Position numbers and translations under genes: made by a program
Shown: in pieces, positions 27,244 to 61,814 of the stretch
Position numbering within the stretch: the stretch's first letter is position 1
Layout of the letters: every line of letters begins with the position of its first letter
Source: a virus
Strand: one strand, 5' to 3'
IMG/VR virus record: IMGVR_UViG_3300037245_003639
Length of the DNA: 64,000 nucleotides
Notes under the pieces: generated by a model
The model's input: only the letters and a program-made list of their open reading frames with translations
Told to the model about the DNA's origin: nothing
Databases searched by the model: none

Positions 27244-29675
27244 TGTTGAAACACCCTCGAAGATGCTTGTTTGTTGTATTCGGTCACCGAGAAATCACCG
27301 GGAGTCTGCCCAAAGCTTTGTCCCAGATACGACTTAAGTCGTCCGAAATATTTCCCGTAATCGCGGTGACAGTTTTTTAGTCTTCCTTCCTCGTCAACCG
27401 AGAAGAGATAGACATTATGTCTGTGTCCATTACCATTAGAAGATGCGTGTTTCTGTGGCCCTTTCATCAAAGTTTGGGTATAACTAGATACAGTCTGCTT
27501 CACTGCCTGTGGAGATTCCTCAATAGCTTTATCATCAAACCTCAATACGCTCCATCCTCGTTGAGCTAACAAATTGTCTCTTTCCTGATCGTCTAGCTGT
27601 TGCTCTGGCTGTCCGTGCCAAATCTCGCCATCACATTCAATCGCTAATTTGATTGGAGGTATGGCGAAATCCAGCAAGAAGGGTTTGCCTCCCTTGGGAT
27701 TCTCTATGGGAAACTGGGCTTTGATAACTTGTTGAGCGTTGATACCAAGATTAGACATCACATCAGTTAGCATGCCAGCCATGGACTGTTCGATACGGGT
27801 TAGCTTGACCATGGGACTCATGGCTGCCATTTCCTCTGGGTCCATTTCCTGACCTTTGCCACCTTTGCCCTTTTTCATTACCTTGCCACCTTCAGCAGCC
27901 GGTGACATTGGCATTCCTCCGCCCATGCCCATATCTCCGCCAGGCATTCCTCCGCCCATGCCCATATCTCCACCAGGCATTCCACCTGGGGCCATGCCAC
28001 CCATCTCGCCACCAGCGCCACCGGCCATTCCACCAGCACCCATTCCGCCCATGCCGCCCATGGCTCCTGCTCCTGCTCCGCCAAGCATGCCACCTGCCGG
28101 ACCCATCTGAATCTGTTCATAACGCTGACGTTTAACTTCCTGGTCATAGTCTAGATCCATTTCCTCCATGAGTGTTTGGGTAGAAATGACTTGTTTATCG
28201 TGAAGTTGCATCAACTTCTCATACCATTGATTCTTGTCTTTCAGTTGCAAGTCATTCCATTTGATAGTCGGATACAAGAAGACCGGCTCGCCAACTTCAG
28301 CGCTGGCTTCTTCGTCGATGAAACCTTGCATTTCCGCGATAGGTTTGAAGATGTTCTCTTCTGCCCATTCGGCCAAAGTATGACGCCAAGACTCGATACG
28401 ACGGATAAGTGTTTCGACGCCAACCTGAGCACTTTGATATCCAGACATCTCGCCGTTGAGCAAAGACTGGTTCAACATAAAGCCATCAAGAATCTCTTTG
28501 CCAACGTATTCCATTTCCTGAGTGACCTGTAGAATCTTGCCAGTTGCCCCATACCACTCGTATTCAAAGTTATGGTGTGTAACAATGGTAAGATTCGGGT
28601 CGTTAGCAGTTGCTGCCAATTGCTGTTGGACATCAGCAATGTCCGCGCTGGTGGCAGGACGGTTATCGCTACCAATCTTGACAACTCTCACTGGAATAAT
28701 CAGTCTCTCAGCGACAATCCAGTTAGCAGTCATGATTTTGGTTTTGTATGCCAGAGTCGTAAACAAACGACGAATCAACGACGATCCATAAGTGCCATAA
28801 GGAACTGGCATATGTCGGAGGTGAGAAACTGTCCTGTTCGATAGCGGAATTGGTTTATTCTGTAAGACCAGACTTTTGACATAATCTGGGATGCGGTCAT
28901 AGACTACCTTGGGTTGCTTGTAAAAGACAATTCGCTTCAGTTCTTCGTCGGGAACCAGGACTACTGCGGGCTCATCCGCTAAGACCGACTGCTGAACTTC
29001 AATCCAGTCAGGATTAAGAACAATCAATCGTTTGAATGAGCCACCCGGATGGTCGCATTGCTCACCAGAATCGGGGTCAACACCTCTGCCCTCACAAACT
29101 GGACATTCCACGTCAGTATGGATAAAGACATCTCCGAGCATGAAATATTCAGAGGCAATCATCTTGAATTTCTCATTAAGTTTAAGACGTTTGACTACGT
29201 GATGTTCAAAGAACTTCAGGACTTTACGACTGGTACATTCTAACTTGAAGCCATTCATAGGGAAGCGACTGTAGAAGTCGATGGCAGCAGCAACTTTAGG
29301 TTCATTTTCGTAGAAGAAACGACACCATTGATAGATTTCACGTCTACGGGATGCAATTTGCCAGTTCTGGGGAGTATGTAATGGAGAGAACCACATAGGG
29401 TTCGTCATCATATTACTAACGCCAGAAGCCTGAGCCATTTTTACCCAGGCATCGGGAGCCATTGCATATTGAGTGCTAGCGTATTTGAAATTGGGATCGT
29501 AATATGGGAAAAGAGCTTGGCTGTCTACAGCTCGCTCAGCATCAAGTTGTCTAATGCGATGTTCCGAAGCCATCTTTGGTGGCATGGCATTGGGATCTTT
29601 ATATGTATCTCCCATCACGATTGGCTGATGCCATTCGGGATCATCGGGAAGAAGTATATTGCGGCCTTGTAGCAT
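27240..29675 (-). CDS. Large structural protein (811 aa), portal-like by size and position (hypothesis). It has a Gly/Met-rich linker and a C-terminal DUF559/Vsr-like endonuclease domain.
   Basis: The C-terminal region PFLLDFAIPPIKLAIECDGEIWHGQPEQQLDDQERDNLLAQRGWSVLRFDDKAIEE matches the DUF559 or very-short-patch-repair-like PD-(D/E)xK fold pattern (VDF...IEVDG..H.......D..R...L...GW.VLRF). A (GGM)n linker precedes it. There is a CPVCEGRG...C zinc knuckle mid-protein. Confidence 0.6.
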   Translation of the reverse strand: MLQGRNILLPDDPEWHQPIVMGDTYKDPNAMPPKMASEHRIRQLDAERAVDSQALFPYYDPNFKYASTQYAMAPDAWVKMAQASGVSNMMTNPMWFSPLHTPQNWQIASRRREIYQWCRFFYENEPKVAAAIDFYSRFPMNGFKLECTSRKVLKFFEHHVVKRLKLNEKFKMIASEYFMLGDVFIHTDVECPVCEGRGVDPDSGEQCDHPGGSFKRLIVLNPDWIEVQQSVLADEPAVVLVPDEELKRIVFYKQPKVVYDRIPDYVKSLVLQNKPIPLSNRTVSHLRHMPVPYGTYGSSLIRRLFTTLAYKTKIMTANWIVAERLIIPVRVVKIGSDNRPATSADIADVQQQLAATANDPNLTIVTHHNFEYEWYGATGKILQVTQEMEYVGKEILDGFMLNQSLLNGEMSGYQSAQVGVETLIRRIESWRHTLAEWAEENIFKPIAEMQGFIDEEASAEVGEPVFLYPTIKWNDLQLKDKNQWYEKLMQLHDKQVISTQTLMEEMDLDYDQEVKRQRYEQIQMGPAGGMLGGAGAGAMGGMGGMGAGGMAGGAGGEMGGMAPGGMPGGDMGMGGGMPGGDMGMGGGMPMSPAAEGGKVMKKGKGGKGQEMDPEEMAAMSPMVKLTRIEQSMAGMLTDVMSNLGINAQQVIKAQFPIENPKGGKPFLLDFAIPPIKLAIECDGEIWHGQPEQQLDDQERDNLLAQRGWSVLRFDDKAIEESPQAVKQTVSSYTQTLMKGPQKHASSNGNGHRHNVYLFSVDEEGRLKNCHRDYGKYFGRLKSYLGQSFGQTPGDFSVTEYNKQASSRVFQQ
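27911..27990. repeat. 33-bp in-frame tandem repeat, 2.3 copies, encoding GGDMGMGGGMP
   Basis: The sequence gcattcctccgcccatgcccatatctccgccag is directly repeated. Confidence 0.6.
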
Positions 29676-42758: not shown

Positions 42759-44669
42759 CTATCCTATTTTGCCGAACTTGCGATTTAAGAACTGCCATTG
42801 TTGAGGAGCATATTGTCCCCTGCCAATGTTCCAACTCTGTCCACCCACCGCTGCATCTCTACTTTGTGGCATATTGACTACGCCTCCTTTAGCGTAACCA
42901 GCATAATGTTGCTCCATTGCAACTCCACAGGCCCCTGCCAATGAGTCACAGCAGTCATCCGTGGTTGCAAGGGCATCGTCATCAGGTTGAATTTTAAAGC
43001 CCAAAGGTCCGTAAACACGCTTTAGACACTTTAATTCCATTGCCATCAATTCAGCATCGTGGCCTTTGTAAGGTAAAGCAAGCTGATGGTTTACCAGTAA
43101 GTGTTCAAGATGATTGTAAATCTGTATTTTGTATTGCTTGCGGAAGGGCGTCATCCGAGTTGGAATTCCCTTCGATCTTAACTTTTGAATACTCGCCATG
43201 GAATTCCAACTATCGTAAGTTACCAAAGCAAATCGGAACCGTTTTGCTAAATCTATGACATATTCGTCTACCTCGTGAACACTAATAGATCTGTCAGGAT
43301 AAGGATGCCATACTTTCACATGATCAACAACAAACAGTTTGAATTTCTCTTTTTTGGGAGGCCCGATTTCACTTTGGTTTGTTCTGATACGTTCCTCGAC
43401 ATGCAGAACGGTTAAAGCGTAATTATGTGAAGTAGCGGCCGGGTCCAAGTGAGCAAAATAGACCACTCCAGGGATGCCCTGGATATGCGCTCCACTATTA
43501 AGCCTGCGACCCATTTCAACTGCTTCTTCTATATAAATGTCTGGAATGAACTTCTCTCCTGCCGTTCCCGAAAATTCTGCTCCAAATTCCATCAAGAACT
43601 CATTAGGGTTCATGAATTTGAATTCTGAGCGTAAAGAAATTTCGCTAAACATCTGGTTTACTTTCCAGGTTGGCAGTTGGTAAGCGAGACGGTTGTGGTT
43701 TTTTGGAGCCGTATTGTATAGATGGAAAAGCATACCCTCTTCACCACGGGGCGATGAAATACTGATGATTTTACTATCCAAGAGAGGAACATCTTCACCG
43801 TTCTCATCTTTGTAAGTTTTGGTCGGATGCTTGAAGTCTGCGGTGGCGGGAGTTAGAGCAGAATAAATACGGTCACCAGATGTGGCTCCACCAGTCGTCT
43901 TAAATGATGCTACTTCGTCCAGCAACAAACAATAGATACGTTTACCCAGCAGACCTTCGCTGTTAGAGTGACCAGACATAATACAAATAGAACCCGGCGT
44001 TTGAGCCGTGGGTAATCCTTGCTTCACCAAATCAGCGTTATTCTTCTTATCTTCAGGGGTTAAGAACCACAATCTGTCAGCCTCAACTTTGCCTATTTTG
44101 CTCTTGAAATATTCCGAACCTTGCATTCGTGATTTAATTTCGTTGTACAAAATTCGCGCCTGATCTGCCGATGTAGCAACTGTGATGATGTAGATGGGAT
44201 TACCCGGAGCCAAACCGTAATAGCCAAAGGGACTTCCACTGGGACATTCCAATAGTTTCATGCACTCATAGAGAGCAATCATAGATGTCATAAAGTCCTT
44301 GCCAGAACGACGACCCAGGACCAGAACAAGCTCTCTAAACAATGCATTCGAGTGATATTTATCAAGAACTAACTGCATTTTGTTGGTAAACAACATCTCG
44401 ATTTCTTCCGGAGTCAATTTGATATGTTCATTTCCTGATTGCCCTCGGTAGAAAGATTTCAGGATAATCTGTTGCATTGGAAAGAGGTTAATTGGCCTGA
44501 CTCCAACCTTCCCGATGGCTTTCATATTGAGGTATTTCTTTGAATAGCAGAATTCAATAATATCAGGAATGTATGGTTCTGATGTGTCAGATGAGGAGAG
44601 GGCTACCTGCTCCTTTATCTTAGATACAACTTCACTTATACTAATTGCACTATCTTCGTCTTTTGACAT
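42759..44669 (-). CDS. terL: Terminase large subunit
   Basis: Walker A-like VLGRRSGKD and Walker B-like CLLLDEV are present. The C-terminal nuclease has the acidic residues FAHLDPAATS, VVDHV and DDCCDSLAG. The size is 636 aa. Confidence 0.75.
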   Translation of the reverse strand: MSKDEDSAISISEVVSKIKEQVALSSSDTSEPYIPDIIEFCYSKKYLNMKAIGKVGVRPINLFPMQQIILKSFYRGQSGNEHIKLTPEEIEMLFTNKMQLVLDKYHSNALFRELVLVLGRRSGKDFMTSMIALYECMKLLECPSGSPFGYYGLAPGNPIYIITVATSADQARILYNEIKSRMQGSEYFKSKIGKVEADRLWFLTPEDKKNNADLVKQGLPTAQTPGSICIMSGHSNSEGLLGKRIYCLLLDEVASFKTTGGATSGDRIYSALTPATADFKHPTKTYKDENGEDVPLLDSKIISISSPRGEEGMLFHLYNTAPKNHNRLAYQLPTWKVNQMFSEISLRSEFKFMNPNEFLMEFGAEFSGTAGEKFIPDIYIEEAVEMGRRLNSGAHIQGIPGVVYFAHLDPAATSHNYALTVLHVEERIRTNQSEIGPPKKEKFKLFVVDHVKVWHPYPDRSISVHEVDEYVIDLAKRFRFALVTYDSWNSMASIQKLRSKGIPTRMTPFRKQYKIQIYNHLEHLLVNHQLALPYKGHDAELMAMELKCLKRVYGPLGFKIQPDDDALATTDDCCDSLAGACGVAMEQHYAGYAKGGVVNMPQSRDAAVGGQSWNIGRGQYAPQQWQFLNRKFGKIG

Positions 44670-50382: not shown

Positions 50383-52635
50383 TTATCCGCAGCGAGAGTG
50401 CAGACAGACAGGACACTTCAGACAAGCCGCATCTGATTGCATCTCCGTCTTCTTGCCCTTCTTAGCACATTTCTCGCAATAACGGTCCTCGGAAACAGCC
50501 AGAATCTCATCCACGGTCAAATAGTGTTTCTTAAGAATCCGTCCAACGGCTTTCGAAAAACTGGTCAATTTGTCGCTGCTCTTATCGATTTGCTGCACAA
50601 TATACTTCGGGAGGATGCCATGACGAAGCTCCAGACTGAAGCGCCGAGTCTCCAAGCCCAATCTGGGGTCAATTTCTTCTTCAACTATGTTTAGATTATC
50701 AATCAGAATCTCACCAGATTCGTCCAGAAGCGAGTAATGTCTTTTTTTCCTCTTCATTACCTGGCCTTGTGACGGCAGATTTTCGTAACCACCATTAACA
50801 GCAAAAATTTCATAAGGCTGGTTGTTCTCAAGTCCTACGATAATATGCCACTGCATGCCCTCGGCCGTCGTTCTGTAAATATCACAGGCAACAGTTCTGG
50901 GTCGAGGTCGAGAGAGATTAGCTCCATAGTTAGTGTTGGTTTTGTCGTCCGACGTAAGCACTTGAGATGTTTTGCACTCGTCTCGATAAATGGTGATTCC
51001 TTTACAACCTTTTTTCCAAGCCCGAAAATAAGCTTCAGCGATATTTTTCTTAGTCGCATTGTTAGGCATGTTGATTGTTTTGGAGATTCCCGAATCGACG
51101 TTCTTTTGGAATGCTGACTGCATATCTACATGCTGTTTCCAATCAACTTCTCGGGCTCCATCCCGATCTTTGTCTATGGCACATCTGAAATACATTTCAT
51201 CTGCTTGCGGATGCGACATCTTGTAATTACCAGTGTTATCTGAGCGATATGTAGTAGGGGCATAGATGGGTTCAGCCGAACTGGAACATCCTGCTATAAT
51301 GGCAATTGAACCTGTGGGCGCCAGCGAGAGGGTTGTGGCATTGCGACGGTAATCCAATTCTCGATACTTACAAGATTTTGGAGTGCCACGTTCTTCAGCC
51401 AACTCAACCGATTTCTCGTGAGTTACATCTTTGAAGAATTTAGACATCTTTTCCGCATAAACGATAGAAGGTTCTTCTCCATAAGCCATATGCTTCTTCA
51501 ACAATAGATCTGCCCAACCCATGATGCCCAAACCCACGGGGCGGTTGTCCTGAGCCCATTGCTTAAATTCTTCGGTGGGGAATTGATTCTTGTCGATAAC
51601 GTTGTCCAAAAACTGGAAAGATGCGCGAATGTCATCCCTTAGTTCATTCCAATTTACGTCATCAAAATCAGGAATGTAATATTTTGAGACATCGATAGAA
51701 CCTAAATTACACGATCCCCATTGCGGTAGCATTTGTTCTCCGCAGGGGTTTGTGGCCGTAAGCTCTTGTCCACTATGTTTGTAAGGCCCATTGTTAATGG
51801 CGTTGTAGAACAATATTCCTGGGTCACCATTGTTCCAGGAATTTGCTACAATTAGATCAAACACGTCATGAGCTTTGATGCTTTCGTAAACTTCGCCGCC
51901 GAAGCGTAAATCAAAAAGACCATCCTTTTCAACGGCCTGCATAAACTCATCAGTTATTAGAACAGAGATATTGAAATTGGATATAAACTTATCCAACATA
52001 ATGTTTGCATGTTCATGAGTATGACCGTTCAGTTTGTCGAAGTGATTGAAGAAATCTTCTTTGAGTTGGTATTTCAGGGCGAACTCGCGTTGTTTACAGG
52101 TAATGAATGTATGAATGTCAGGATGATCTACCCGCAGCACGCCCATATTAGCCATGCCTCGAAATCCCGCTTGAGTAATCGAATTCATAGCCTCAGATAC
52201 AACAATCATATGACGAACGGGGCCGCACGCTTTATAGTGAGTAGAGCCAAATACTCTATCGCCTGAAGGTCTGATTTGCGAGAAGTCAACTCCGCATCCG
52301 CCCCCACGGCGGGCAATATGCCCAAAGTTGGCTATGTTTTCACACATACCAATCCAACTATCTTCTGGGCTTTTGGTTACAAAACACGCCAGCAATCCAC
52401 CAACTGGATTGCCAGCGTTTACAAGACAAGGGGAGTTTGGAAGAAACCTGGTGGAGTAAAGCAGTTTCGAGATTTTCTTTTTGAACTCTTGGGATTCGTG
52501 GCCACAAACTGCCTTCGTTACCCTTTGAACTAACCCATCCCAGTCTTCAATGTTATTGCCATCATCATCCTTACGATAATATCGCGTGGCGGCGACGTTA
52601 CGCGCCGCGGCGTTGAGTGGACACTCTTTTCCCAT
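50383..52635 (-). CDS. nrdJ: Ribonucleotide reductase, class II type (NrdJ-like)
   Basis: The active-site motifs are NPCGEQMLPQWGSCNLGSIDVS and LAPTGSIAIIAGCSSSAEP. The C-terminal Zn ribbon is CEKC...CLKCPVC. The corrected start is MGKECPLN, preceded by GAGGAGA and a 7-nt spacer. Confidence 0.8.
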   Translation of the reverse strand: MGKECPLNAAARNVAATRYYRKDDDGNNIEDWDGLVQRVTKAVCGHESQEFKKKISKLLYSTRFLPNSPCLVNAGNPVGGLLACFVTKSPEDSWIGMCENIANFGHIARRGGGCGVDFSQIRPSGDRVFGSTHYKACGPVRHMIVVSEAMNSITQAGFRGMANMGVLRVDHPDIHTFITCKQREFALKYQLKEDFFNHFDKLNGHTHEHANIMLDKFISNFNISVLITDEFMQAVEKDGLFDLRFGGEVYESIKAHDVFDLIVANSWNNGDPGILFYNAINNGPYKHSGQELTATNPCGEQMLPQWGSCNLGSIDVSKYYIPDFDDVNWNELRDDIRASFQFLDNVIDKNQFPTEEFKQWAQDNRPVGLGIMGWADLLLKKHMAYGEEPSIVYAEKMSKFFKDVTHEKSVELAEERGTPKSCKYRELDYRRNATTLSLAPTGSIAIIAGCSSSAEPIYAPTTYRSDNTGNYKMSHPQADEMYFRCAIDKDRDGAREVDWKQHVDMQSAFQKNVDSGISKTINMPNNATKKNIAEAYFRAWKKGCKGITIYRDECKTSQVLTSDDKTNTNYGANLSRPRPRTVACDIYRTTAEGMQWHIIVGLENNQPYEIFAVNGGYENLPSQGQVMKRKKRHYSLLDESGEILIDNLNIVEEEIDPRLGLETRRFSLELRHGILPKYIVQQIDKSSDKLTSFSKAVGRILKKHYLTVDEILAVSEDRYCEKCAKKGKKTEMQSDAACLKCPVCLHSRCG

Positions 52636-52732
52636 GCTTACATTCTCCTCAATTCCATATAACGGTGAAGGCAATATTCACAAATTCAATCTCAGTTCCT
52701 TCACCGATTTTCAAAGGGACATAGAGCGTGGA

Positions 52733-53461
52733 CTATACTGCTGGATCGAAGAGACCTTCCTGTTGGGCTTTGTATTTTTCTTTGATTTCGACACGTTTTT
52801 GTTCGCGCTTTCTGGCCTTCCGGGTTTGCTGTTTTGCTTTCTTTAGCTCTTTCTGCGATTTCGGTTTCTTTGCACTGATGTTGGTTGTGCCGGTCGCTTG
52901 TAATCGCTTTCTTGCTTGTCTCTTGGCATGAATTTTGGCTTTACGCTTGTCGTTGCGTTCCTGCATTTTTTCTTGAGTTGATTGAACGGTAGGCAAATCG
53001 ACAAGTAATTTGCCCTCTAAATGGTCGTATTCATGTTGAACGATGACAGCCTCTGTCCAATTCAATTCTAAAGGACCATCGACATCACTCAGGAAAAAAC
53101 CATTTTGATCTTCGGATAATTCGACGATGCGATCCGCATCAATGACAACGCAAGCACACCTTTCAACAGTCCGCATGACGCCTGGAAGAGAAAGACAACC
53201 TTCAGTGGAAGGAGTTGTATTCTCACCCATCTCTTCAAACCTGGGATTTACAAAACCGTATCTGCGGTTCAAAGCAGGCAACCAGGCGATAAAGACCCTT
53301 TGTAATGTGTTTATTTGGGGTGCAGAAAGACCCAACTGTCTGTCAGGCAAGGAGTCGCATAAGTCATGGAGTAAATTGAGAGTTTCTGCTGATTTGGGAT
53401 CAACTGGTTCTGATTTTTGATGCAGCAACTCTCGGTCAGTAATGATAGTTCGCTTAGCCAT
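52733..53461 (-). CDS. def: Peptide deformylase with a long Lys/Arg-rich C-terminal extension
   Basis: The three PDF motifs are GLSAPQI, EGCLSLPG and QHEYDHLEG. The basic tail is about 80 aa long. Confidence 0.85.
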   Translation of the reverse strand: MAKRTIITDRELLHQKSEPVDPKSAETLNLLHDLCDSLPDRQLGLSAPQINTLQRVFIAWLPALNRRYGFVNPRFEEMGENTTPSTEGCLSLPGVMRTVERCACVVIDADRIVELSEDQNGFFLSDVDGPLELNWTEAVIVQHEYDHLEGKLLVDLPTVQSTQEKMQERNDKRKAKIHAKRQARKRLQATGTTNISAKKPKSQKELKKAKQQTRKARKREQKRVEIKEKYKAQQEGLFDPAV

Positions 53462-53492: not shown

Positions 53493-53738
53493 CTAAGCTT
53501 TGCGAAAGACGTTTATAGGATTGATCGCCCACAGGAATTTGTTGGACTTTGCTTGCGACTTCGCGTCCATTGCAACAATCTTTTTCTTATCGACCTGAAT
53601 CCTGCGATAAGTGTTAAAGATGATAACCAACAATTCACCGAGCGTCGCGGCGGCTCCAGCCAATATGACTTTGTGAGACGCTAAATATTCTATGAGTTCA
53701 CTTAGCATGGCCCCCTCCAAAAAAGAAACCAGCCCCAC
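53493..53738 (-). CDS. Small membrane protein of 81 aa with one TM helix. It is holin-like, but this is speculative.
   Basis: VILAGAAATLGELLVIIF is a hydrophobic helix. The C-terminus is basic. Confidence 0.4.
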   Translation of the reverse strand: MGLVSFLEGAMLSELIEYLASHKVILAGAAATLGELLVIIFNTYRRIQVDKKKIVAMDAKSQAKSNKFLWAINPINVFRKA

Positions 53739-53760
53739 AGTAGCGAGGCTGGCTCTTTGG

Positions 53761-54444
53761 TTAGTCCTCTAATTCTACGTTCCAGTATAGTTCGTCGTTC
53801 TGGACTTTCAAGAACTGAGCCCAGGACTTCGGGAACCGTTGGAAACGTCGAATAGAATAAATCGGGCTCCAGCATGGAGCTTTCGGACGTTCGTAGTATT
53901 TCGGTCGCAGGTGACCGTTTTTCTCGATCATCTGACGCAGAGTCATGCCTGCTTGCTCCGGGGTTCGGTTATCCTTGTGCTTGTTGCAACTGACACAAGC
54001 CAAAACGCAGTTCTCGAAGCAGGTCACGCTTTTGTCGTGCTGCTGTCGATTCCAGATCGCCTTCGGGACAACGTGGTCCACAGAGATCTCATCATGTCGT
54101 GGACGCTTACCACAATACTGGCAGCGGAAACGGTCCCGCTTCCATAGGTTGCGGCGAGAGAATACCACAGTACGACGAGGCACTTTGTCGTAGTGATTGA
54201 CTACGACTTCGGGAACCAGAATACGCTGACGAGCCGCTTGGATGAAACGACCGTCTCCGACTTCTTGCTCCATCCATCCTTCCATGTCATGGAGCGTAAA
54301 CGACTGCGGATGGACCACTCGCGCTTTTTCAGCCATTACGTCTGTAATGGCCTCACGCGCAGTTGTCGCATCAATTGCGAACCATCCCTTGTTCAAAACA
54401 AGGACTGGGCTATCCAGGGCTGTCGTTTCTAAAGTCGCTACCAT
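53761..54444 (-). CDS. HNH endonuclease
   Basis: CQYCGKRPRHDEISVDHVVPKAIWN...NCVLACVSCNKHKDNRT fits the HNH pattern C..C..H.....DH..P.....N...C..CN..K. Confidence 0.75.
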   Translation of the reverse strand: MVATLETTALDSPVLVLNKGWFAIDATTAREAITDVMAEKARVVHPQSFTLHDMEGWMEQEVGDGRFIQAARQRILVPEVVVNHYDKVPRRTVVFSRRNLWKRDRFRCQYCGKRPRHDEISVDHVVPKAIWNRQQHDKSVTCFENCVLACVSCNKHKDNRTPEQAGMTLRQMIEKNGHLRPKYYERPKAPCWSPIYSIRRFQRFPKSWAQFLKVQNDELYWNVELED

Positions 54445-54453
54445 AACATCACC

Positions 54454-54642
54454 TCACTCATACAACTCCATTTTTTTCTTACGTCCCTTGCCAACACATT
54501 TAGCTTGGAGCCGCTTTTGATGCGCCTCCCGGGCCTTTACGTCCTCGATAGTGGGGGAGAAATGCGAAAAATGCAGTCTCATCCACGCTTCGGAGGGAGC
54601 TTTAGCCATATTATAATGGATTAGTGCTTCTGTCAACCTCAT
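54454..54642 (-). CDS. Small basic protein (62 aa)
   Basis: The ORF overlaps the DHH gene stop by 4 nt. Confidence 0.4.
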   Translation of the reverse strand: MRLTEALIHYNMAKAPSEAWMRLHFSHFSPTIEDVKAREAHQKRLQAKCVGKGRKKKMELYE

Positions 54643-55763
54643 TTTTCAGTTATTTTCTGGAATTTCCGCTCGATATTCGTCTTTACCAAGTCCCAGAGGC
54701 CCGACATCTCGTCGGCTGGCATCGATGATACGTCAAAAACGTTGATCTGGACCTTGGCCCCTCCGATACCATGTTTGGCTCCACCGTTACCCTGACCGAA
54801 GAGTTCGTCCAAAAGATTCTGAGCATCCAGAGTTGAACTTGAAGTTCGCACACTTCCTCGCACAGCACCTTCCACAATAGCATATACCACAACTGTCTGA
54901 ATGCCCTGCAATCTCATGAACTTATCTGCCAAATAAGGAATACAATCGCTCTTGGAATCTTCCAAGAACCCTAAACCCGCAATCAAACTTGGGGGTTGAT
55001 AACTTTTGTTCTCCCAGGCGGTACGTTCCGCATCAAACACGTAAGGTGATAGTTCATAATTGACGATTTTATGGAATTTTTCGTCACTAAAATGACGGCT
55101 CAAAACTTTGTATGCCTGAAAATCATCATCTGTCGTGTTTTCTGTCAAAAAGTCCAGTGTGTCTGTTTTGATACCAACTGCTAAAGATGTGGCAATCTCT
55201 CTCATGTTGTCTGCATCAGGATCGAAACACTGAATTTGCTCATCCTCCACTTGTATGCAAAGCGAAAGCATCAGATCAACAATCAGGGTCGCACATGCTC
55301 CAATTTCATCATGAATCGAGAGGACGCCTCTGGCCGGGACATTTTTGTGATGATCCACCACAATATCAGGATCAAATGGAATGCTCATGTTATTTTGGCC
55401 GCCAACACAATCTACGAAAACAACAACTGGTTTCTCTTTGGCGTTGATGAACTCATTCTCGATGGTTTTTGTCCAAGGGTTGATCGGAATCTTCAAGACG
55501 GTTTTCATCGCTCGATTTTGTGGGTGAGAGATTTCTCCGCAGTAATACATTTTGATCGATTCTGCGCCCAAGAACGATAGAATATGGAACATTCCATACG
55601 CAGAAGCCAGTGAATCAGGATCGGGATTATCATGCGAACAAACTATAAACTGTCTATGTCGTTGCTCTTCAATAAATTTGCAAAAGGCATCTTTCTTGGC
55701 TTTGACCTTTTTGTTGCCAATTGGGGCGATTAGATTTTTGTGTTCTTTATTACTATCGGACAT
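54639..55763 (-). CDS. DHH-DHHA1 family phosphoesterase, NrnA or RecJ-core like
   Basis: Motifs present: VCSHDNPDPDSLASA (DHH motif I), VFVDCVGG, VVDHHKN (DHH), and Gly-rich GNGGAKHGIGGAK (DHHA1 GGGH-like). Confidence 0.7.
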   Translation of the reverse strand: MSDSNKEHKNLIAPIGNKKVKAKKDAFCKFIEEQRHRQFIVCSHDNPDPDSLASAYGMFHILSFLGAESIKMYYCGEISHPQNRAMKTVLKIPINPWTKTIENEFINAKEKPVVVFVDCVGGQNNMSIPFDPDIVVDHHKNVPARGVLSIHDEIGACATLIVDLMLSLCIQVEDEQIQCFDPDADNMREIATSLAVGIKTDTLDFLTENTTDDDFQAYKVLSRHFSDEKFHKIVNYELSPYVFDAERTAWENKSYQPPSLIAGLGFLEDSKSDCIPYLADKFMRLQGIQTVVVYAIVEGAVRGSVRTSSSTLDAQNLLDELFGQGNGGAKHGIGGAKVQINVFDVSSMPADEMSGLWDLVKTNIERKFQKITEK

Positions 55764-55772
55764 GACTGCTTT

Positions 55773-56201
55773 CTAGATGTTGCGGATGGCTTTGCGGGCG
55801 ATATCCATATGAGTCGAGAGATATTCGTTCACTATTGTACAACAAGTCTCCTCGATAATTTCAAAATCGCGTAAATCAAGTCCTTCCGAACTCTGAAGTC
55901 TTTTTCTTTGGGCGTCAATTAAATCAGATAGTTTGGTTTCATCCACGATAGCGCTAACCACCTGAAGCCAAGTTTCCCCATTGTCAAACGCAGCGTTGAT
56001 TTCGTCGTCGGAGGCTTCACCGAATAAATCAGCCAAACATTCGACATAACCGGTCTGGCACCCATCTTGTTGCTCCATGTCCAAACCAACGAGTTTTTTG
56101 GTTTCCCATTTGACTAAACTGGAGAATATCGTGACAATGAAATCATCTGTCAATGATGGTTCAAGTATATACACTGCCATATCAGTATTTTCCTTGGACA
56201 A
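55773..56201 (-). CDS. Hypothetical acidic protein (142 aa) within the RNA-repair operon
   Basis: The ORF is tightly packed between the HD-Pnk and DHH genes. Confidence 0.5.
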   Translation of the reverse strand: MSKENTDMAVYILEPSLTDDFIVTIFSSLVKWETKKLVGLDMEQQDGCQTGYVECLADLFGEASDDEINAAFDNGETWLQVVSAIVDETKLSDLIDAQRKRLQSSEGLDLRDFEIIEETCCTIVNEYLSTHMDIARKAIRNI

Positions 56202-57269
56202 TTATACATAGATGACCTCGTGGGCCTCGGTTAGATCAGGGACTTCCCATTTATTCAATAGCTTGTTGATAACGGTTTCGGGGACTGCATTTTTTCGGGC
56301 TTTGTTTTGCTTCCATAGGTTATCGTGATCGGTTTCAACATAGACTATACAGATACGGGCTCCGTACTGCCGAAGCAACGTGAGACATTTATTACGAACC
56401 ATTTTGCTTACGTTAGTAGCATTCCAAACAAAATCCCGCCTGGCACCCAATAGACGTTTCGCTTCATCCTTGGCCTGCCGGATGACCTTTGACTGATTAT
56501 CCGCAGGTCGGACTCGCAGACTCTCTCTGATTGCGTCAAGAGAAACAACTGGTAGACCATCACAGTTGGCATGGATATAATGGCTTTTCCCTGAGCCCGG
56601 TAATCCTGACATAACTATCACTGTCGGTCTAAGCGGCGGACGAGCTTGGCTGCGGATATCTTGGCCCAGGTTGAAATGAGCAACCCGGGCATGATCAGAA
56701 GCAAATGGGTAAGAAGCTCCCCAGCAACCAATCTCCTGACAGAATTTCCGGAATATATGAACTTTCTCAACACTTTCGCCCCCATCAGATAGACAATGCC
56801 GACCTTCCGCATCCGCCTCAGCCAATATAGCCAGCAAGTCAGTTCTGACGGACAAACTGATTTGTGCCACGTAACTTTCCATGTCAGATGCATCCAACAG
56901 ATGCAAAGGGCGCATATGATATTTGACCAGATTGCAAACATCTTCGCGGGCTCTGAAGTCGGCTCCGGCTTCCCAAAGAATGCGACGAGCCTTTATAGTC
57001 CCTTTGAGAGCATGGTTTTTGCTGGTAATGCGCCCATCAACAACATCGAATACGTCAGGCTTGGCACAGTCATGCAAGATTGCTGCCGTTAGGAGAATAT
57101 CCTGAATCTCATTTGGTTGTGCCTGATAAGCGCGGAGTCCACGTAGAGCCGAGCATACTAACTGCGTATGAACCCAAACATCGCCTTCTCCGTGATATTC
57201 GGGACTTTGCTCACATTGACGCATCGCATCAACCCAGGGAGCATCCAGATTATTCGGGTCGAGCAACAT
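56202..57269 (-). CDS. HD-Pnk: an N-terminal HD phosphohydrolase fused to a C-terminal P-loop polynucleotide kinase
   Basis: The HD motifs are HGEGDVWVH, ILHDCAKP, KYHMRP and EADAEGRH. The Walker A motif is VMSGLPGSGKSH. Confidence 0.75.
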   Translation of the reverse strand: MLLDPNNLDAPWVDAMRQCEQSPEYHGEGDVWVHTQLVCSALRGLRAYQAQPNEIQDILLTAAILHDCAKPDVFDVVDGRITSKNHALKGTIKARRILWEAGADFRAREDVCNLVKYHMRPLHLLDASDMESYVAQISLSVRTDLLAILAEADAEGRHCLSDGGESVEKVHIFRKFCQEIGCWGASYPFASDHARVAHFNLGQDIRSQARPPLRPTVIVMSGLPGSGKSHYIHANCDGLPVVSLDAIRESLRVRPADNQSKVIRQAKDEAKRLLGARRDFVWNATNVSKMVRNKCLTLLRQYGARICIVYVETDHDNLWKQNKARKNAVPETVINKLLNKWEVPDLTEAHEVIYV

Positions 57270-57978
57270 TACATTTGCATCCTTCGTTTATCTGGGTCTC
57301 GATACGTCTAATCTGCGAAGTCCAACAATCGATAGCCAAATAGCCACTTAGCGCATCAGCCTCGACTAACAGTTTGATTACTTCGATGGCTTGCATGCTA
57401 CCGACCATGCCAACCGCTGCTCCTAATACTCCTCGCTCAACATCTGGAGTACCGCAGACGCTGGCCTCAAATATGCACCACAAACAAGCTGTCTGGCCCG
57501 GGACAATAGCCCAGACTCTTCCTTCTGTTTCTGTCACTCCGCCGTAAACCCAGGGTTTGCGGAGTTTGATGGCCCAATCGTTGATGATAAAACGACTATC
57601 CATATTGTCTGTGCAATCGGCAATTACATCTGCATCCGCCAGCAACTCCTCTGCGTTGCCATCTGTCAGTCGTTTAGATTCCAATCGCAGCCGAATCGTT
57701 GGGTTAATTCTTAATAAACGAACTCCTGCTCGTTCAACTTTGAATTTACCCACGTCAACGCTGTCGTAAAGAACTTGACGAGGCAAATTGCTTGATGCAA
57801 CTCGGTCATCGTCAATGAGTGTTACGTTGACGCCTGAGCGAACCAAAGACGAGCTAACTACGCAGCCCATTCCTCCGCAACCAACGATGGCTACTCGTTT
57901 TTCACGCAGTTTAGTATGACGCTTCGCTCCCAGAAGAGCTATTTGCCGATTGTATCGGTCATCGGTTATGCGGCCCAT
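57250..57978 (-). CDS. E1-like adenylyltransferase of the ThiF/MoeB family
   Basis: Motifs present: RYNRQI, VAIVGCGGMGC, DDDRVASSNLPRQ, DCTDNMDSRF, plus the Zn motif CLWC...GCKC. The RBS is AGGAG with an 8-nt spacer. Confidence 0.75.
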   Translation of the reverse strand: MGRITDDRYNRQIALLGAKRHTKLREKRVAIVGCGGMGCVVSSSLVRSGVNVTLIDDDRVASSNLPRQVLYDSVDVGKFKVERAGVRLLRINPTIRLRLESKRLTDGNAEELLADADVIADCTDNMDSRFIINDWAIKLRKPWVYGGVTETEGRVWAIVPGQTACLWCIFEASVCGTPDVERGVLGAAVGMVGSMQAIEVIKLLVEADALSGYLAIDCWTSQIRRIETQINEGCKCNVARPE

Positions 57979-58754
57979 ATATCAACTCCTGGAGCCAGTT
58001 GATTTTCTACAATTGGTCGTTCCATCCAATGAGAGCCCGAATCAAGCAACTGCTGTACGAAACTGTGTCGCACAAACTTTAGTCGCTCACTGACAACTCC
58101 GTCTTCTTCCACTTTGATATATAGGCCCTCGGAGAGCCTGCTCATATCCGTCTCTGCTTTCGTGGCGTCAAACTCATGTTTGGCAGCTTCGGCTGCAAGT
58201 TCCAGGGCTAATTCCCAATCCTCACTTTTGTACAGAGAAGTTCCTACCAGCGAAAGCAGATGATCATAATCTTCGGCGGTTCCTGACCACAAAACAGGCA
58301 CGGAGATCACTGGCAATTTCTCCAGCATCGCATAACGCCGTGGAGTATCCAAAAAGACTTCTGTTTCTTTGTCGAAAATATCGAACTCCATGAAGAGATG
58401 CGGGAGCATGTCATAAAACTCGGTATGCTTAGCCTGCATCCATTCGCCGTACATAATATAGCGATTACCTAGCACCTTCCAGAAACTGTCTGCATGGCAT
58501 GGAGCCCAAGCTTTCAGCCTCGTGAAGTGGCGCTCGCGTGGACCTCCCCGCAACGCATGGCCTCGACTTTGAAGCAACAAATCACCTTTGCCATGAAAAC
58601 TGACAGCGCAATTGGCCCCGTCGAGTTTCTCTTCCACGACGATATGACGACCCTTCAAATCCACGAACGGAACCTGTGTCAGGTCTTCATCGCCTTGTTG
58701 AAGACGAGAACCTTTCAAGTGACGAGTCCTGGGATATTTGTAGAAGTCTTTCAT
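57966..58754 (-). CDS. ATP-dependent RNA ligase, Rnl2-like nucleotidyltransferase
   Basis: The N-terminal KYPRTRHL is followed by motif I EEKLDGAN (KxDGxN). The likely true start is MKDFYKYPRTRHL. The ORF-track start at 58781 is a GTG. Confidence 0.65.
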   Translation of the reverse strand: MKDFYKYPRTRHLKGSRLQQGDEDLTQVPFVDLKGRHIVVEEKLDGANCAVSFHGKGDLLLQSRGHALRGGPRERHFTRLKAWAPCHADSFWKVLGNRYIMYGEWMQAKHTEFYDMLPHLFMEFDIFDKETEVFLDTPRRYAMLEKLPVISVPVLWSGTAEDYDHLLSLVGTSLYKSEDWELALELAAEAAKHEFDATKAETDMSRLSEGLYIKVEEDGVVSERLKFVRHSFVQQLLDSGSHWMERPIVENQLAPGVDIWAA

Positions 58755-59024
58755 AATTTCATCAACCCTATAGCGTAACACTGCGGAGCCAATTTGTCAA
58801 GGTTTTTTGGCAGAACAAAAATAACGGCAACTGCCGCCAGGGTATAAAACTCAAAATTATATGGTCTTTCCTGGAATGATGACAAAAAAAGTCACCATCC
58901 GCCTCTCCAGTATTGGAATTAGACGATTTCAATGCAAGGATTTTCCTCTCACGGGCCGTAAATAAGATAACAGGACAATATCCATATAATGGTGTAAATA
59001 TTTTTCGGACTATAAGGCACAAAT

Positions 59025-61814
59025 ATGAACTGGTTATTTCGCTTCAAAAAACTGGCTCAACAAACCATTCCACTTAACATGAAGAGTCTGATGGAACTCG
59101 GTGAGAGTCCATATGCCGAGACTGCTGCTAGTCTTCTACGCATGTTTGATAAGATGTTTACCCAAATTCCTCAGCTTCTCACAAACGAACCAATACTCAC
59201 AGACGTTGATGCCAGCAATCTCGGTAACGAAATATTCATTGCAGTAAAAGAAAATGATGATCTTCAGTTCGACGATTGGGATGATACATGGAATTTTATT
59301 ACGACTGTTGAGAGTGAAAGAGAACATCTTAGATCTAAATCAGAACTAAGGACAAGTTTCCATATTGATGGCTTAACCTATTCAGAAGAACCAGGCGCTT
59401 ATGGACCGATGATTAACGGAATTGCACTTCGCCAGGCAGATCCTGCTACACTTAGCGAGTTTGTTAACAAAATAAGAAAACTTGGCGAATATATCGAAGA
59501 AGCTAAAGATATGGTTGCAGGCGAACCCGAAGAGGCAGGTGGAGACTGGAACTCAGAAATGATGGTGGGCAGTGGCTGGTGGGAAGGCAAAGAAGTCAGA
59601 CAGTTCTACGACCAGTATAAAGCTGGTCTAGAACAAATACAACTTGTTATTCAGCAAAATCCCGGCTGGCAAAATAATTTCAATGAGTTGGTGGATAGCG
59701 TCACTGAATTGTCTATTACCTTCCTGTCTTTAATGCGAAAAAGCGAAACAGGGGAAACTGTCCCTCCGCCACAACTTCCCTGGATTGATGCCGAATTATT
59801 CAAAAGAAGCATCAAGGCAAATAACATCAACAAATCCACCGAATGGTTTATGAACAAAAATCCTGAATTCAAAGCAGGACTTCTAGCAGATGCTCAACGG
59901 CGGCACAGAGATGCTCAAGTTGCTGCATTGGAAGATAGCAAAATCCAATTTGATCATGCCCACGGCATGGCAGACACCCCTGTAGGAGAGACTAGCTGGT
60001 TGAATGCCCTGAGGATGCCATTCAATGGTCTTGATGAAGGTGATCCTCGTCTTTCATTGGACGCTAAAACTCTTTCCACTATGTCTGGTCGTATAGCCGC
60101 ATTACAAGTGCGGGGAGCAAACGAGACAAGTCAAGTCATTGCACTCTACGTTGTTGCCATTCAAATGAAAGCCATGAGTGATCCCAACCTTACTGACGCA
60201 TTCGGTAATAGTTTGGAATACGCTCCTGACAGAGATCGAGCGCGAGCAGGAGCCATGGCAGCGGAAGGAACCTACACATTACCTGAAGTTTTCCAAGGCA
60301 GGAGTGTTCGAGAAATCAGCGGATCGATTGAAACGCACTTCAGTGAAATGAGAGATTTCTTCGAGAATATCAAACGAATTGTCAAAACCCGAAATTACGA
60401 ATATTCAGAAGCAGAAGCTGTTCGCCTAAGAGAACTGGGGATTTTGAGCAAACCGATGCCGGGTATAAAATATCGAGTCCAGGAAGAACGTTTTCCAGGC
60501 ATGGGTTATCTGGAGGGTGAAGAAGTTGGTCGCGTTGGAACTAACTTCCAAATTGCTATCGCTCCTACTGCGGAATACTTGCAACAGAAAGGTTTACCCG
60601 AGAAAATCTTCTCCAAATATGACGCCCGCGACAGCCAAAAAGGTATGCACCTGCACGGATCTGCTCGCGACATAGATGGATTAGCTCCTATCGGATGGGT
60701 CGGTGGTTGGGTTGATCCTGAAACCAGGGAAATGTTCGTATTCGAAACTCAAAGTGACATAATGCAGCGCTCCGGGTTCATGAGAGATTCAGTTAAACTT
60801 GAGGACGAACGAAAAGCCAGGGCATTCCAATTAGAAGCAGACATGACTGCCGTGCAACAACAGATTACGGATCTGCAAACAGGAGCCACTCAACCTAAGA
60901 AGAAAAAAGGTCCAAAAGACGCTATCCGGGCCAATATCCGACGCATCAGAGCAGATATAGAACAGGCTAAGGCCGATTTAGATCAATTATCTCAGCAAAA
61001 TCAAGCAATGGAACAGCAGGCAGACTTCGATCCTAACCACCCAGGTTACTTGCATAATAAACAAGTCATAGACACCAAACTAAAAGCAATCTCCAAATTT
61101 ACTCAACAACTCCAGAGGATGGAGGAAAACCTGGCTCGCATTCCCGATCCTGTCGAGCCCGAACTCGCGCCCGAGATTCAGCAGCCCGAGGGACAGCCCG
61201 TTGCACCTGAAGGACAACCTGTTGCACCTGAAGGACAACCTGTTGCACCTGAAGGACAACCAGTCCCTGAGTTGCCGCAACAACTTCAACAGAAAATAAA
61301 TAAACTGCAAAACAAACTACAGAATCTGGAAGTGGAGTTGATTGAATCTAAAAAGCCAGTTCAACCACTTACGGGTTCATACGTTTGGCCACATTGGCAC
61401 GACTATCGTTCTAAGTTAGAGACGGCTTTCAAAGACTGGATTCCGATCTTCTGGAATACAGCCGTTAGAGAAGCCAAGCAGATGGGTATTGTCAGTCTCT
61501 ATATCGTCCACTCAGACGAACTTATGAAGATATGGGCGGGCGTTCTTAGAGGCAAAACCGCTGAAGAAAAAGAACTTGTCAGAGGTTTGTACAAAAGGGT
61601 CTACGATAAAATTGCAGAGGGCTATGGTGCAACAGAAGTCAATTATAGGGGCAGAAAATTCTTCCGAATTGACATCAACGATCCAAACCTGCGATTTGCG
61701 TCTAATTGGTTTATGAGAGCCCCTTACGACTCTCCGTATGCCCGTCTGGTCAAAATCAACTGGCCTAAATCACACGGGTTACCCAACACAACAGGATTGG
61801 TTCGTAGATCCTAA
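59025..61814 (+). CDS. Large protein of 929 aa, paralog B. It is the only plus-strand gene and carries a (PEGQPVA)n repeat.
   Basis: It shares N-terminus MNWLFRF with paralog A, along with GWVGGWVDPETREMFVFETQSDIMQRSGFMRD and WHDYRSKLETAFKDWIPIFWNTAVREAK. Confidence 0.6.
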   Translation: MNWLFRFKKLAQQTIPLNMKSLMELGESPYAETAASLLRMFDKMFTQIPQLLTNEPILTDVDASNLGNEIFIAVKENDDLQFDDWDDTWNFITTVESEREHLRSKSELRTSFHIDGLTYSEEPGAYGPMINGIALRQADPATLSEFVNKIRKLGEYIEEAKDMVAGEPEEAGGDWNSEMMVGSGWWEGKEVRQFYDQYKAGLEQIQLVIQQNPGWQNNFNELVDSVTELSITFLSLMRKSETGETVPPPQLPWIDAELFKRSIKANNINKSTEWFMNKNPEFKAGLLADAQRRHRDAQVAALEDSKIQFDHAHGMADTPVGETSWLNALRMPFNGLDEGDPRLSLDAKTLSTMSGRIAALQVRGANETSQVIALYVVAIQMKAMSDPNLTDAFGNSLEYAPDRDRARAGAMAAEGTYTLPEVFQGRSVREISGSIETHFSEMRDFFENIKRIVKTRNYEYSEAEAVRLRELGILSKPMPGIKYRVQEERFPGMGYLEGEEVGRVGTNFQIAIAPTAEYLQQKGLPEKIFSKYDARDSQKGMHLHGSARDIDGLAPIGWVGGWVDPETREMFVFETQSDIMQRSGFMRDSVKLEDERKARAFQLEADMTAVQQQITDLQTGATQPKKKKGPKDAIRANIRRIRADIEQAKADLDQLSQQNQAMEQQADFDPNHPGYLHNKQVIDTKLKAISKFTQQLQRMEENLARIPDPVEPELAPEIQQPEGQPVAPEGQPVAPEGQPVAPEGQPVPELPQQLQQKINKLQNKLQNLEVELIESKKPVQPLTGSYVWPHWHDYRSKLETAFKDWIPIFWNTAVREAKQMGIVSLYIVHSDELMKIWAGVLRGKTAEEKELVRGLYKRVYDKIAEGYGATEVNYRGRKFFRIDINDPNLRFASNWFMRAPYDSPYARLVKINWPKSHGLPNTTGLVRRS
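61188..61270. repeat. 21-bp in-frame tandem repeat, about 3.5 copies, encoding PEGQPVA
   Basis: The sequence cctgaaggacaacctgttgca is directly repeated. Confidence 0.6.

Follow-up and report, generated by a model that had tools for sequence, protein, structure and literature searches.

In bacteriophage T4, Pnkp together with Rnl1 or Rnl2 repairs tRNA against PrrC. As a counter to tRNA cleavage, jumbo phages often carry RNA ligases together with kinases and phosphoesterases (PMC7824862). In bacteria, the HD-Pnk of Runella slithyformis has proven 5'-kinase and 2',3'-phosphoesterase activities, and the open reading frame (ORF) of an upstream ligase overlaps its own (PMC6097658), while Deinococcus radiodurans encodes a radiation-induced operon of DR_B0100 (ligase), DR_B0099 (a poly(ADP-ribose) glycohydrolase (PARG)/macro protein) and DR_B0098 (HD-Pnk) (PMC6300522). 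The ligase/HD-Pnk pair is widespread and its ligase is enigmatic in vitro; phage versions make it easier to recognize what selects for the pair, namely host nucleases. Here we analyze such a phage version, found at 53761–58781 on the minus strand of IMG/VR virus record IMGVR_UViG_3300037245_003639. The window (the whole stretch of DNA that was analyzed, 64 kb) is part of a 403,172-bp phage contig, and the locus consists of seven co-oriented, tightly packed ORFs encoding a ligase (Rnl), a MoeB/ThiF-type E1-like adenylyltransferase (ThiF), HD-Pnk, a small protein (orf135), a DHH-DHHA1 phosphoesterase, a small basic protein (orf62) and an HNH-domain protein (table 1).

An initial annotation, made from the sequence alone, had read five or six of these genes as one RNA end-healing and sealing cassette. 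We favor, with a probability of roughly 0.65, the view that the locus is a three-layer mosaic heading a long leftward gene array in a ~403-kb phage. In the first layer, the P-loop kinase domain of HD-Pnk would turn 5'-OH ends into 5'-phosphates, its HD domain would turn 2',3'-cyclic, 2'- or 3'-phosphate ends into hydroxyls, and the ligase would self-adenylylate on its motif I lysine and then seal the break, the pair most likely reversing 5'-OH/3'-phosphate breaks made by host nucleases during infection. The second layer would be a MoeB/ThiF-type E1 of cellular, MoeB-like origin that entered between the pair in one sub-lineage. Its adenylation and zinc sites are intact, and its most likely target for adenylation is the C-terminal carboxylate of a small sulfur-carrier or ubiquitin-like protein whose gene would lie in the host or the remaining phage genome; it would be co-translated with the repair pair yet dispensable for it. 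The third layer is the backbone block of orf135, DHH-DHHA1, orf62, and HNH. Its DHH protein is putatively an NrnA/Pde2-like hydrolase of short oligoribonucleotides, pAp or dinucleotides, for which a role in recycling nucleotides or clearing signals is more likely than one in end repair.

By homology, the ligase and HD-Pnk are a new representative, in a phage, of an end-healing and sealing pair known to be widespread in bacteria. At E ≤ 1e-10, 3387 homologues of HD-Pnk were found, and identity stays at 40–48% across many bacterial phyla; among 80 bacterial loci fetched by HD-Pnk similarity, again from many phyla, 55 have a ligase 46–60% identical to the window Rnl directly upstream of HD-Pnk on the same strand. 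A ligase also directly precedes HD-Pnk in the unrelated 462-kb phage LR756500 (L001; L numbers are our handles for the loci compared) and in two related phages, L015 and L017, with an 11-nt overlap of the two genes in the latter; in the window, the ThiF gene separates them. On RefSeq plasmids the pair is annotated as "RNA ligase family protein" and "AAA family ATPase": the two genes overlap by 4 nt on a plasmid of Deinococcus sp. KNUC1210, a Deinococcus plasmid homologue aligns full-length to the window HD-Pnk (3e-22, ~29% identity), and a homologous pair lies near a SOS-response-associated peptidase on a Pseudomonas plasmid.

Variants of the arrangement also occur. Three Acidobacteria loci (L034, L035, and L079) have a ligase-like gene downstream of HD-Pnk that is only 29–33% identical to the window Rnl, and the 1-kb spacer between Rnl and HD-Pnk in the cyanobacterial locus L063 holds no credible ORF. 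In LR756500.1 (L001, 2692–14634) the ligase has 364 aa, including an N-terminal extension of ~170 aa, and it and HD-Pnk are accompanied by a PARP-domain protein, an R2K ATP-grasp protein, an AAA ATPase, a DFP (CoaBC-like) protein, a major-vault-protein-like shoulder/SPFH protein and a macro-domain protein, a setting that looks like an NAD/ADP-ribose conflict island.

The ligase most likely starts at ATG 58754 (262 aa), because its homologues begin MKDFYKYPRT. The KxDGxN motif named in the initial annotation is present as EEKLDGAN, and across 15 aligned sequences motifs I, Ia, III, IIIa, IV, and V are invariant or nearly so (K52 in EEKxDGAN, SRGH, YGEW, FxEFD, EGLYxK, and RxKxVR). The protein matches PHROG RNA ligase families as well as Pfam RNA_ligase; sequence and profile searches of the PDB returned nothing significant for it, and tblastn against GenBank phages gave at most 32% identity (27% for the sole near-full-length match), with no match in this gene context. 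The proposed assignment to the Rnl2 type does not hold. The Rnl2 family is marked by a C-terminal domain, with ~90 residues after motif V. In the 271-residue ORF only ~33 residues follow motif V (K235–R238) and this domain is absent, and an hhalign comparison with T4 Rnl2 (RnlB) returned a probability of 0.4% (E 0.16), with alignment confined to the generic nucleotidyltransferase motifs I, III, and IIIa. Judged by its relatives, the protein is an ATP-dependent polynucleotide ligase of the Runella LIG/Deinococcus LigB type that pairs with HD-Pnk.

HD-Pnk has the HD-then-kinase order of the Runella type, as first proposed, with Pfam HD over residues 52–137 of the N-terminal part and AAA_33 over residues 217–342 of the C-terminal part. 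The HD metal ligands (H26, H66, D67, H86, H118, and D153) are invariant in 12 homologues, as are the kinase residues G222, P224, G225, G227, K228, D245, and R248, the P-loop reading GxPGxGK. The HD domain is nearest to those of CCA-adding and poly(A) polymerase enzymes and the kinase domain, through weak matches, is closest to the tRNA kinase PSTK and the RNA-repair bacterial Pnkp; a bifunctional PNK-3'-phosphatase model matched HD-Pnk at only 0.009. In L002 (6433–6522), the last ~30 HD-Pnk residues lie in a different frame, a frameshift or a sequencing error. Homology establishes the domain architectures, the intact catalytic residues and the membership of the bacterial ligase/HD-Pnk pair, and from these we infer that HD-Pnk heals ends and the ligase seals them, countering host nucleases in the phage.

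We further infer that the favored substrate of the pair is RNA, especially tRNA, because the ligase belongs to RNA-ligase families, the HD domain is like that of CCA-adding enzymes, the kinase resembles PSTK and Pnkp, jumbo phages provide a precedent and the window encodes a tRNA nucleotidyltransferase-like protein. Counter-defense tRNA repair is plausible by analogy with T4. The nucleotidyltransferase gene pointed out in the initial annotation is indeed present and matches PHROG tRNA nucleotidyltransferase families (9e-20 and 2e-15), but it lies 15 kb from the locus, beyond the terminase gene, and is not adjacent. Since Rfam and ARAGORN searches found no RNA genes in the window, tRNA genes included, and since the nucleotidyltransferase is so distant, the "complete tRNA repair toolkit" that had been envisaged is speculation.

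The ThiF gene is a lineage-specific insertion between the ligase and HD-Pnk genes, as judged from its distribution. At 55–85% aa identity, related contigs repeat the gene order, in L002 and L006–L012 in full with ThiF and in L017 identically but minus ThiF. The ThiF clade comprises only 5 protein clusters in a database of 5.8 billion sequences, all located between Rnl and HD-Pnk, and beyond it identity falls to 42–45%, to cellular MoeB-like proteins of ~340 residues, one of which (P0006) adjoins genes for molybdenum-cofactor (Moco) biosynthesis and a cysteine desulfurase-type aminotransferase. None of the 80 bacterial loci has a ThiF gene, and the gene is also missing from the four other huge-phage HD-Pnk loci (L001 and L003–L005) and the sister phages L017 and L015; a scan of viral contigs with ThiF found no relatives, and tblastn against GenBank phages found distant or host-derived matches only (≤36% identity), none in this gene context. 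A neighbor-joining tree of Rnl and HD-Pnk (586 columns) has the topology (L015,(L006,(L017,(window,L002)))) with support of 0.91–1.0; L017 is nested within the ThiF-bearing clade, and ThiF was therefore lost or exchanged in L017. Nothing in the C-termini of Rnl, HD-Pnk, orf135, or orf62 distinguishes the ThiF-bearing genomes from the others. The series formed by L015 (neither ThiF nor DHH), L017 (DHH only) and the window, L002, and L006 (both) is a ready-made natural comparison for the contribution of the E1.

The phage ThiF protein keeps its adenylation and zinc sites. Its Pfam match spans profile positions 1–237 of 238, it aligns full-length to Escherichia coli MoeB (1jw9_B, 3e-36), and it conserves the GxGxxG, RxxRQ, and DxTDN motifs and the four zinc-site cysteines, with R8, Q12, G33, G35, D56, R67, K80, D124, C165, C168, C234, and C236 invariant. 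It scores below the cut-offs of all NCBIfam equivalogs. The proportions of nonsynonymous (pN) and synonymous (pS) differences between the window and L002 are 0.13 and 0.77, and purifying selection acts on every gene of the locus, with pN far below a saturated pS; ThiF evolves faster than its neighbors (57% identity between the window and L006 vs. 63–75%). On these sequence features, we regard ThiF as an active enzyme, of the sulfur-carrier type, that adenylates the carboxylate of a substrate encoded elsewhere. No real gene in the window encodes a GG-terminated small ORF, and Pfam searches of the other window ORFs (42 together, 19 singly) revealed no ThiS/MoaD, ubiquitin-like, JAB, or PP-loop family.

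Two more specific identities were rejected. The E1–E2 models of PADLOC, representing Cap2 of the cyclic-oligonucleotide-based antiphage signaling system (CBASS), match ThiF residues 19–148 only, the Rossmann part, with no E2 region. TcdA (tRNA ct6A dehydratase) matches partially at 45.8 bits against a cut-off of 304; Uba4 and TcdA are among the PDB relatives of ThiF, with MoeB/ThiF much closer than TcdA. The cellular relatives P0006, P0017, P0048, and P0056 have a C-terminal extension of ~100 residues ending in GG, GA, or GS (e.g., ...YARYVGG), possibly a ubiquitin-like or sulfur-carrier domain fused to the enzyme; no such extension is present in the phage ThiF proteins.

The remaining genes belong to the phage backbone. 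In L098–L100 and the IMG/VR contigs L102 and L103 the order is orf135, DHH, HNH, a small ORF, peptide deformylase, and ribonucleotide reductase (RNR). Three of these contigs have a recognizable orf62, and in L098 HNH is followed by an additional aminotransferase gene; within 7 kb upstream, none of the five has a ligase, ThiF, or HD-Pnk. Ligase and kinase are missing at 26 of 27 viral DHH loci, the L002 contig being the sole exception. Conversely, no relative of ThiF, DHH, orf135, or orf62 lies within 7 kb of any of the 80 bacterial Rnl–HD-Pnk loci, and L015 carries Rnl, HD-Pnk, orf135, orf62, and HNH without DHH. HNH is syntenic and 39–85% identical in all related phages, orf62 is conserved at 39–71% in L002, L006, L015, L017, L098, L099, and L102, and orf135 lies directly upstream of DHH (of orf62 in L015) wherever its context was examined in this huge-phage group. 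This synteny marks orf135–DHH–orf62–HNH as a backbone block that extends into the deformylase and RNR genes, rather than a dedicated repair cassette; DHH adjoins the repair pair because that pair was placed at the block's head. Where genes are packed as tightly as in huge phages, backbone genes can resemble parts of an accessory cassette.

The original proposal, one integrated counter-defense cassette in which all five or six genes repair tRNAs cut by anticodon nucleases and the E1 and DHH proteins are added components, can appeal to the tight spacing and overlaps from Rnl to HNH, to the one promoter-like site upstream and the one strong terminator-like hairpin downstream, to the retention of the whole order in related contigs (including L002, L006–L008, and L010), to the ligase, kinase, and phosphoesterase sets that jumbo phages deploy against tRNA cleavage (PMC7824862) and to the tRNA nucleotidyltransferase-like gene elsewhere in the window. 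We nevertheless consider it improbable, given that the block persists in L098–L100, L102, and L103 with neither ligase nor kinase, that L015 combines ligase and kinase without DHH or ThiF and L017 lacks ThiF, that none of the 80 bacterial loci joins the pair to ThiF, DHH, orf135, or orf62, and that the conservation is synteny inside one phage family, not independent co-occurrence. On present evidence, DHH and the small ORFs do not qualify as parts of the repair system.

The ORF described as 142 aa exists, but its start is most likely ATG 56180 (135 aa; hence orf135), because the alignments of most homologues, the 12 best among them, begin at residue 8 and this ATG is preceded by AAGGAA. The product is small, acidic, and all-helical, and is modeled by AlphaFold as a seven-helix bundle (predicted local distance difference test score (pLDDT) 92, predicted template modeling score (pTM) 0.85); its family has 41 representatives at 50% clustering, all of ~130 aa, and the model found no informative fold match in the PDB or BFVD.

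The DHH-DHHA1 assignment of the initial annotation stands, with DHH recognized by Pfam and DHHA1 by structure. Motifs I–IV of the DHH domain are invariant in 51 sequences (D48, D50, D118, D137, H138, H139, and D201), and in Foldseek the AlphaFold model (pLDDT 92.6) superposes over its full length on stand-alone, two-domain DHH-DHHA1 enzymes (6e-18 to 1e-14), among them NrnA of Bacillus, NrnA/Pde2 of Staphylococcus aureus, TM1595, DhhP of Borrelia, the catalytic domain of GdpP, and a RecJ-like protein of D. radiodurans. The matches to 8ioo, 5xsi, 9r7o, 5o25, 8iu7, and 5j21 are at 1e-15 to 6e-18. Pfam DHHA1 does not match the window protein, although PF02272 is on record for several of its homologues. 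The DHHA1 family is defined by the GGGH motif. Here the glycine-rich consensus is GxGNGGAKxGxGGA (G323 and G328 invariant), not the canonical GGGH. The homologues form ~100 clusters at 45–82% identity, many on contigs of 0.4–0.58 Mb, and the family is found mainly on large, probably phage, contigs. Family II pyrophosphatase, the best NCBIfam match (4e-6), was rejected as the leading candidate on TM-scores of 0.39–0.46 vs. 0.55–0.62 for NrnA/GdpP-type enzymes.

The modeled fold points to short oligoribonucleotides, pAp, and linear or cyclic dinucleotides as substrates. Within this range, the DHH protein might be an anti-signaling phosphodiesterase that degrades the cyclic di- or oligonucleotide messengers of CBASS, type III CRISPR, or cyclic di-AMP (c-di-AMP) signaling rather than a nucleotide recycler. 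Among its best matches in structure are GdpP, a c-di-AMP phosphodiesterase, and the pApA/c-di-AMP enzymes DhhP, TM1595, and Pde2, the family is widespread in large phages, and a review of jumbo phages predicts this role for phage DHH phosphodiesterases (PMC7824862). We regard the proposal as a doubtful but reasonable contender: the nanoRNases NrnA and Nrn are matched about equally well, the conserved place beside deformylase and RNR fits housekeeping nucleotide metabolism, and the protein matches nothing in PADLOC or in any anti-defense family.

Several observations weigh against the mosaic account, beginning with the chemistry assigned to the pair. The Runella ligase self-adenylylates but does not seal standard 3'-OH/5'-PO4 substrates (PMC6097658), and the sealing step and true substrate are uncertain for this reason. 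In Deinococcus, HD-Pnk is needed for resistance to ionizing radiation and mitomycin C (PMC6300522), which points to DNA rather than RNA. Given these data, a serious rival is that the ligase and HD-Pnk repair 3'-phosphate/5'-OH breaks in phage or host DNA, as proposed for the Deinococcus ligB operon, which is itself radiation-induced (PMC6300522). The title of a cited study calls Runella HD-Pnk a DNA/RNA end-healing enzyme, the phage locus adjoins the DNA-metabolism genes HNH and RNR, and the Pseudomonas plasmid pair sits near the SOS-associated peptidase. Several properties nonetheless make DNA the unlikely choice, namely the membership of the ligase in the Pfam RNA_ligase and PHROG RNA ligase families, the likeness of the HD domain to that of tRNA CCA-adding enzymes, the proximity of the kinase to PSTK and RNA-repair Pnkp, and the link in Runella between the pair and Tpt1, an RNA 2'-phosphotransferase (PMC6097658).

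The position of ThiF is a further difficulty for the mosaic account. ThiF overlaps both neighbors by a conserved 13–31 nt across phages whose ThiF proteins are only ~56% identical, and its placement exactly between otherwise overlapping genes argues for selected co-expression and perhaps a shared pathway. The search for a ThiF partner covered 64 kb of the ~403-kb genome. DHH, for its part, would be co-transcribed with the repair genes in this sub-lineage if the predicted promoter and terminator are real, and a local functional link is then possible.

ThiF could on these grounds be a genuine third repair component, either activating a protein cofactor for the ligase or restoring, on repaired tRNA, an anticodon-loop base with a carboxylate or thio modification. 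In Runella (PMC6097658) and Deinococcus (PMC6300522) the paired ligases show little activity on their own, E1-like enzymes act on tRNA elsewhere (Uba4 and TcdA being among the structural relatives), and the Deinococcus PARG/macro gene sits at the same position between ligase and HD-Pnk (PMC6300522). We judge this role unlikely, since ThiF is missing from the other Rnl–HD-Pnk loci examined and from the sister phages, is much nearer MoeB/ThiF than TcdA, evolves faster than its neighbors and has no candidate partner gene in the window. The version in which the E1 activates with ATP a cofactor for a sluggish ligase, or re-installs a thio- or carboxylate-dependent anticodon-loop modification on rejoined tRNAs, seems to us slightly less likely still; if true, a part for the E1 in repair would be the first link of E1-like adenylation chemistry to RNA or DNA break repair. 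We retain the mosaic account, in which ThiF is an insertion that the pair can do without.

The features of the locus and its surroundings are collected in table 1. The minus-strand ORFs and the Rnl/ThiF and ThiF/HD-Pnk overlaps were reported correctly in the initial annotation, and Pfam searches back its ligase, ThiF, HD, kinase, and DHH calls.

Table 1. Features of the locus, its flanking genes and its candidate transcription signals in the 64-kb window.
Feature	Coordinates	Strand	Evidence or remark
tRNA nucleotidyltransferase-like protein, 276 aa	38813..39643	-	PolyA_pol head domain 2.4e-12
Ribonucleotide reductase (RNR) large chain	50383-52674	-	Homologues carrying Ribonuc_red_lgN/lgC
Peptide deformylase	52733-53461	-	Pep_deformylase 5e-23
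Small ORF	53493-53738	-	Part of backbone block, by synteny
Terminator-like hairpin, 13 pairs then T-run	53726..53755	-	Just after HNH; consensus match
HNH-domain protein, 227 aa	53761..54444	-	HNH_5 2.6e-8, HNH 5.5e-8
orf62, small basic protein	54454..54642	-	Family match: none
DHH-DHHA1 phosphoesterase	54639..55763	-	Pfam DHH PF01368 1.4e-8
orf135	55773..56180 (ORF to 56201)	-	Pfam: none
HD-Pnk	56202..57269	-	Pfam HD 4.8e-6 and AAA_33 3.2e-22
MoeB/ThiF-type E1-like adenylyltransferase, 242 aa	57250..57978	-	Pfam ThiF PF00899 1.8e-60
Ligase (Rnl)	57966..58754 (ORF open to GTG at 58781)	-	Pfam RNA_ligase PF09414 4.3e-30
Best sigma-70-like promoter match, TTGTCA-18-TATAAT, 11/12	58856..58885	-	Divergent intergenic region upstream of Rnl; consensus match

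The minus strand carries every gene from 344 to 58781, including the phage markers of the window (large terminase, 42759–44669; portal, 27240–29675), so co-orientation is weak evidence for an operon or its boundaries. Coupling of Rnl, ThiF, and HD-Pnk is tight: the Rnl stop (57966) and ThiF start (57978) overlap by 13 nt and the ThiF stop (57250) and HD-Pnk start (57269) by 20 nt. DHH and orf62 overlap by 4 nt (ATGA), gaps of 9 nt separate orf135 from DHH and orf62 from HNH, and Shine–Dalgarno-like sequences lie 5' of ThiF, HD-Pnk, orf135, and HNH. Promoter-like sites in the region are not above the shuffled expectation, and the best of them serves as a lead only; terminator-like sites are enriched (19 vs. 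8.0 ± 2.7 expected), and the hairpin after HNH is a possible 3' end of the transcription unit. Together with the overlaps, this one promoter-like site and one strong terminator-like hairpin are consistent with co-transcription from Rnl to HNH. Downstream of the best promoter-like site and ahead of the start codon of the ligase, at 58822–58839 (minus strand), lies a short terminator-like hairpin with a T-run; it may act as an attenuator or match by chance. A nucleotide search of window positions 54000–59100 against GenBank phages gave no match, and PADLOC assigned Rnl, HD-Pnk, orf135, DHH, and orf62 to no defense system.

Several features of the surroundings were recorded alongside. The RNR gene is intact in the window, is interrupted by an insert of ~1.15 kb in L002 (10856–14281) and contains several inserts in L103 (8180–15131), where the HNH gene is also split; these inserts are probably inteins or introns. 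The peptide deformylase has a Lys/Arg-rich C-terminal tail of ~85 residues outside the Pfam domain. On the plus strand, a divergent ORF of 929 aa (59025–61814) has no family match and contains a tandem PEGQPVA repeat of ~4 copies (61185–61265); its homologues adjoin the ligase in L002, L006, L015, and L017 (23–51% identity). Mobile elements include a LAGLIDADG_2 homing-endonuclease-like ORF far from the locus in the window (13303–14295, minus strand), another immediately upstream of the ligase in L012 (21–665), and a TnpB-like gene (OrfB_IS605/Cas12f1-like TNB) a few kb from the ligase in L017 (2708–3931), which is without ThiF.

Compared with known systems, the phage set is expected from its domains to perform the same chemistry as T4 Pnkp with Rnl1 or Rnl2 (5' kinase, 3' phosphoesterase, and ATP-dependent ligase), but T4 Pnkp consists of a kinase followed by a HAD phosphatase and the enzyme here of an HD phosphoesterase followed by a kinase. 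The phage DHH protein shares the two-domain DHH-DHHA1 fold of NrnA, Pde2, and the GdpP catalytic domain at only 15–18% sequence identity, and differs from them in an extra N-terminal helix, a long C-terminal helix and GNGGAKxGxGGA in place of GGGH. Phage ThiF has the same length as E. coli MoeB/ThiF, with the ATP-binding motifs and four zinc cysteines common to both; its second zinc pair is CxC, not CxxC, it has no MoaD/ThiS partner or cofactor-biosynthesis genes nearby and, unlike the E. coli proteins, it is embedded in a nucleic-acid repair gene pair. The D. radiodurans ligB operon, compared by description, likewise combines ligase and HD-Pnk with an unrelated accessory gene between them, but the inserted gene is a PARG there and an E1 in the phage, and the Deinococcus operon is radiation-induced and contributes to DNA-damage resistance. 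The R. slithyformis LIG/HD-Pnk system (Munir and Shuman 2017; via PMC6097658), compared by description and not by sequence, has the same pair in the same order and the same HD-Pnk architecture, with ligase and HD-Pnk ORFs that overlap like those of L017 and Deinococcus sp. KNUC1210; its cluster has Tpt1 and a methyltransferase–HIT protein nearby, neither of which is present at the phage locus. Unlike Runella, the phage places a MoeB/ThiF-type E1 between ligase and HD-Pnk, and this embedded E1 is the only new feature of the locus.

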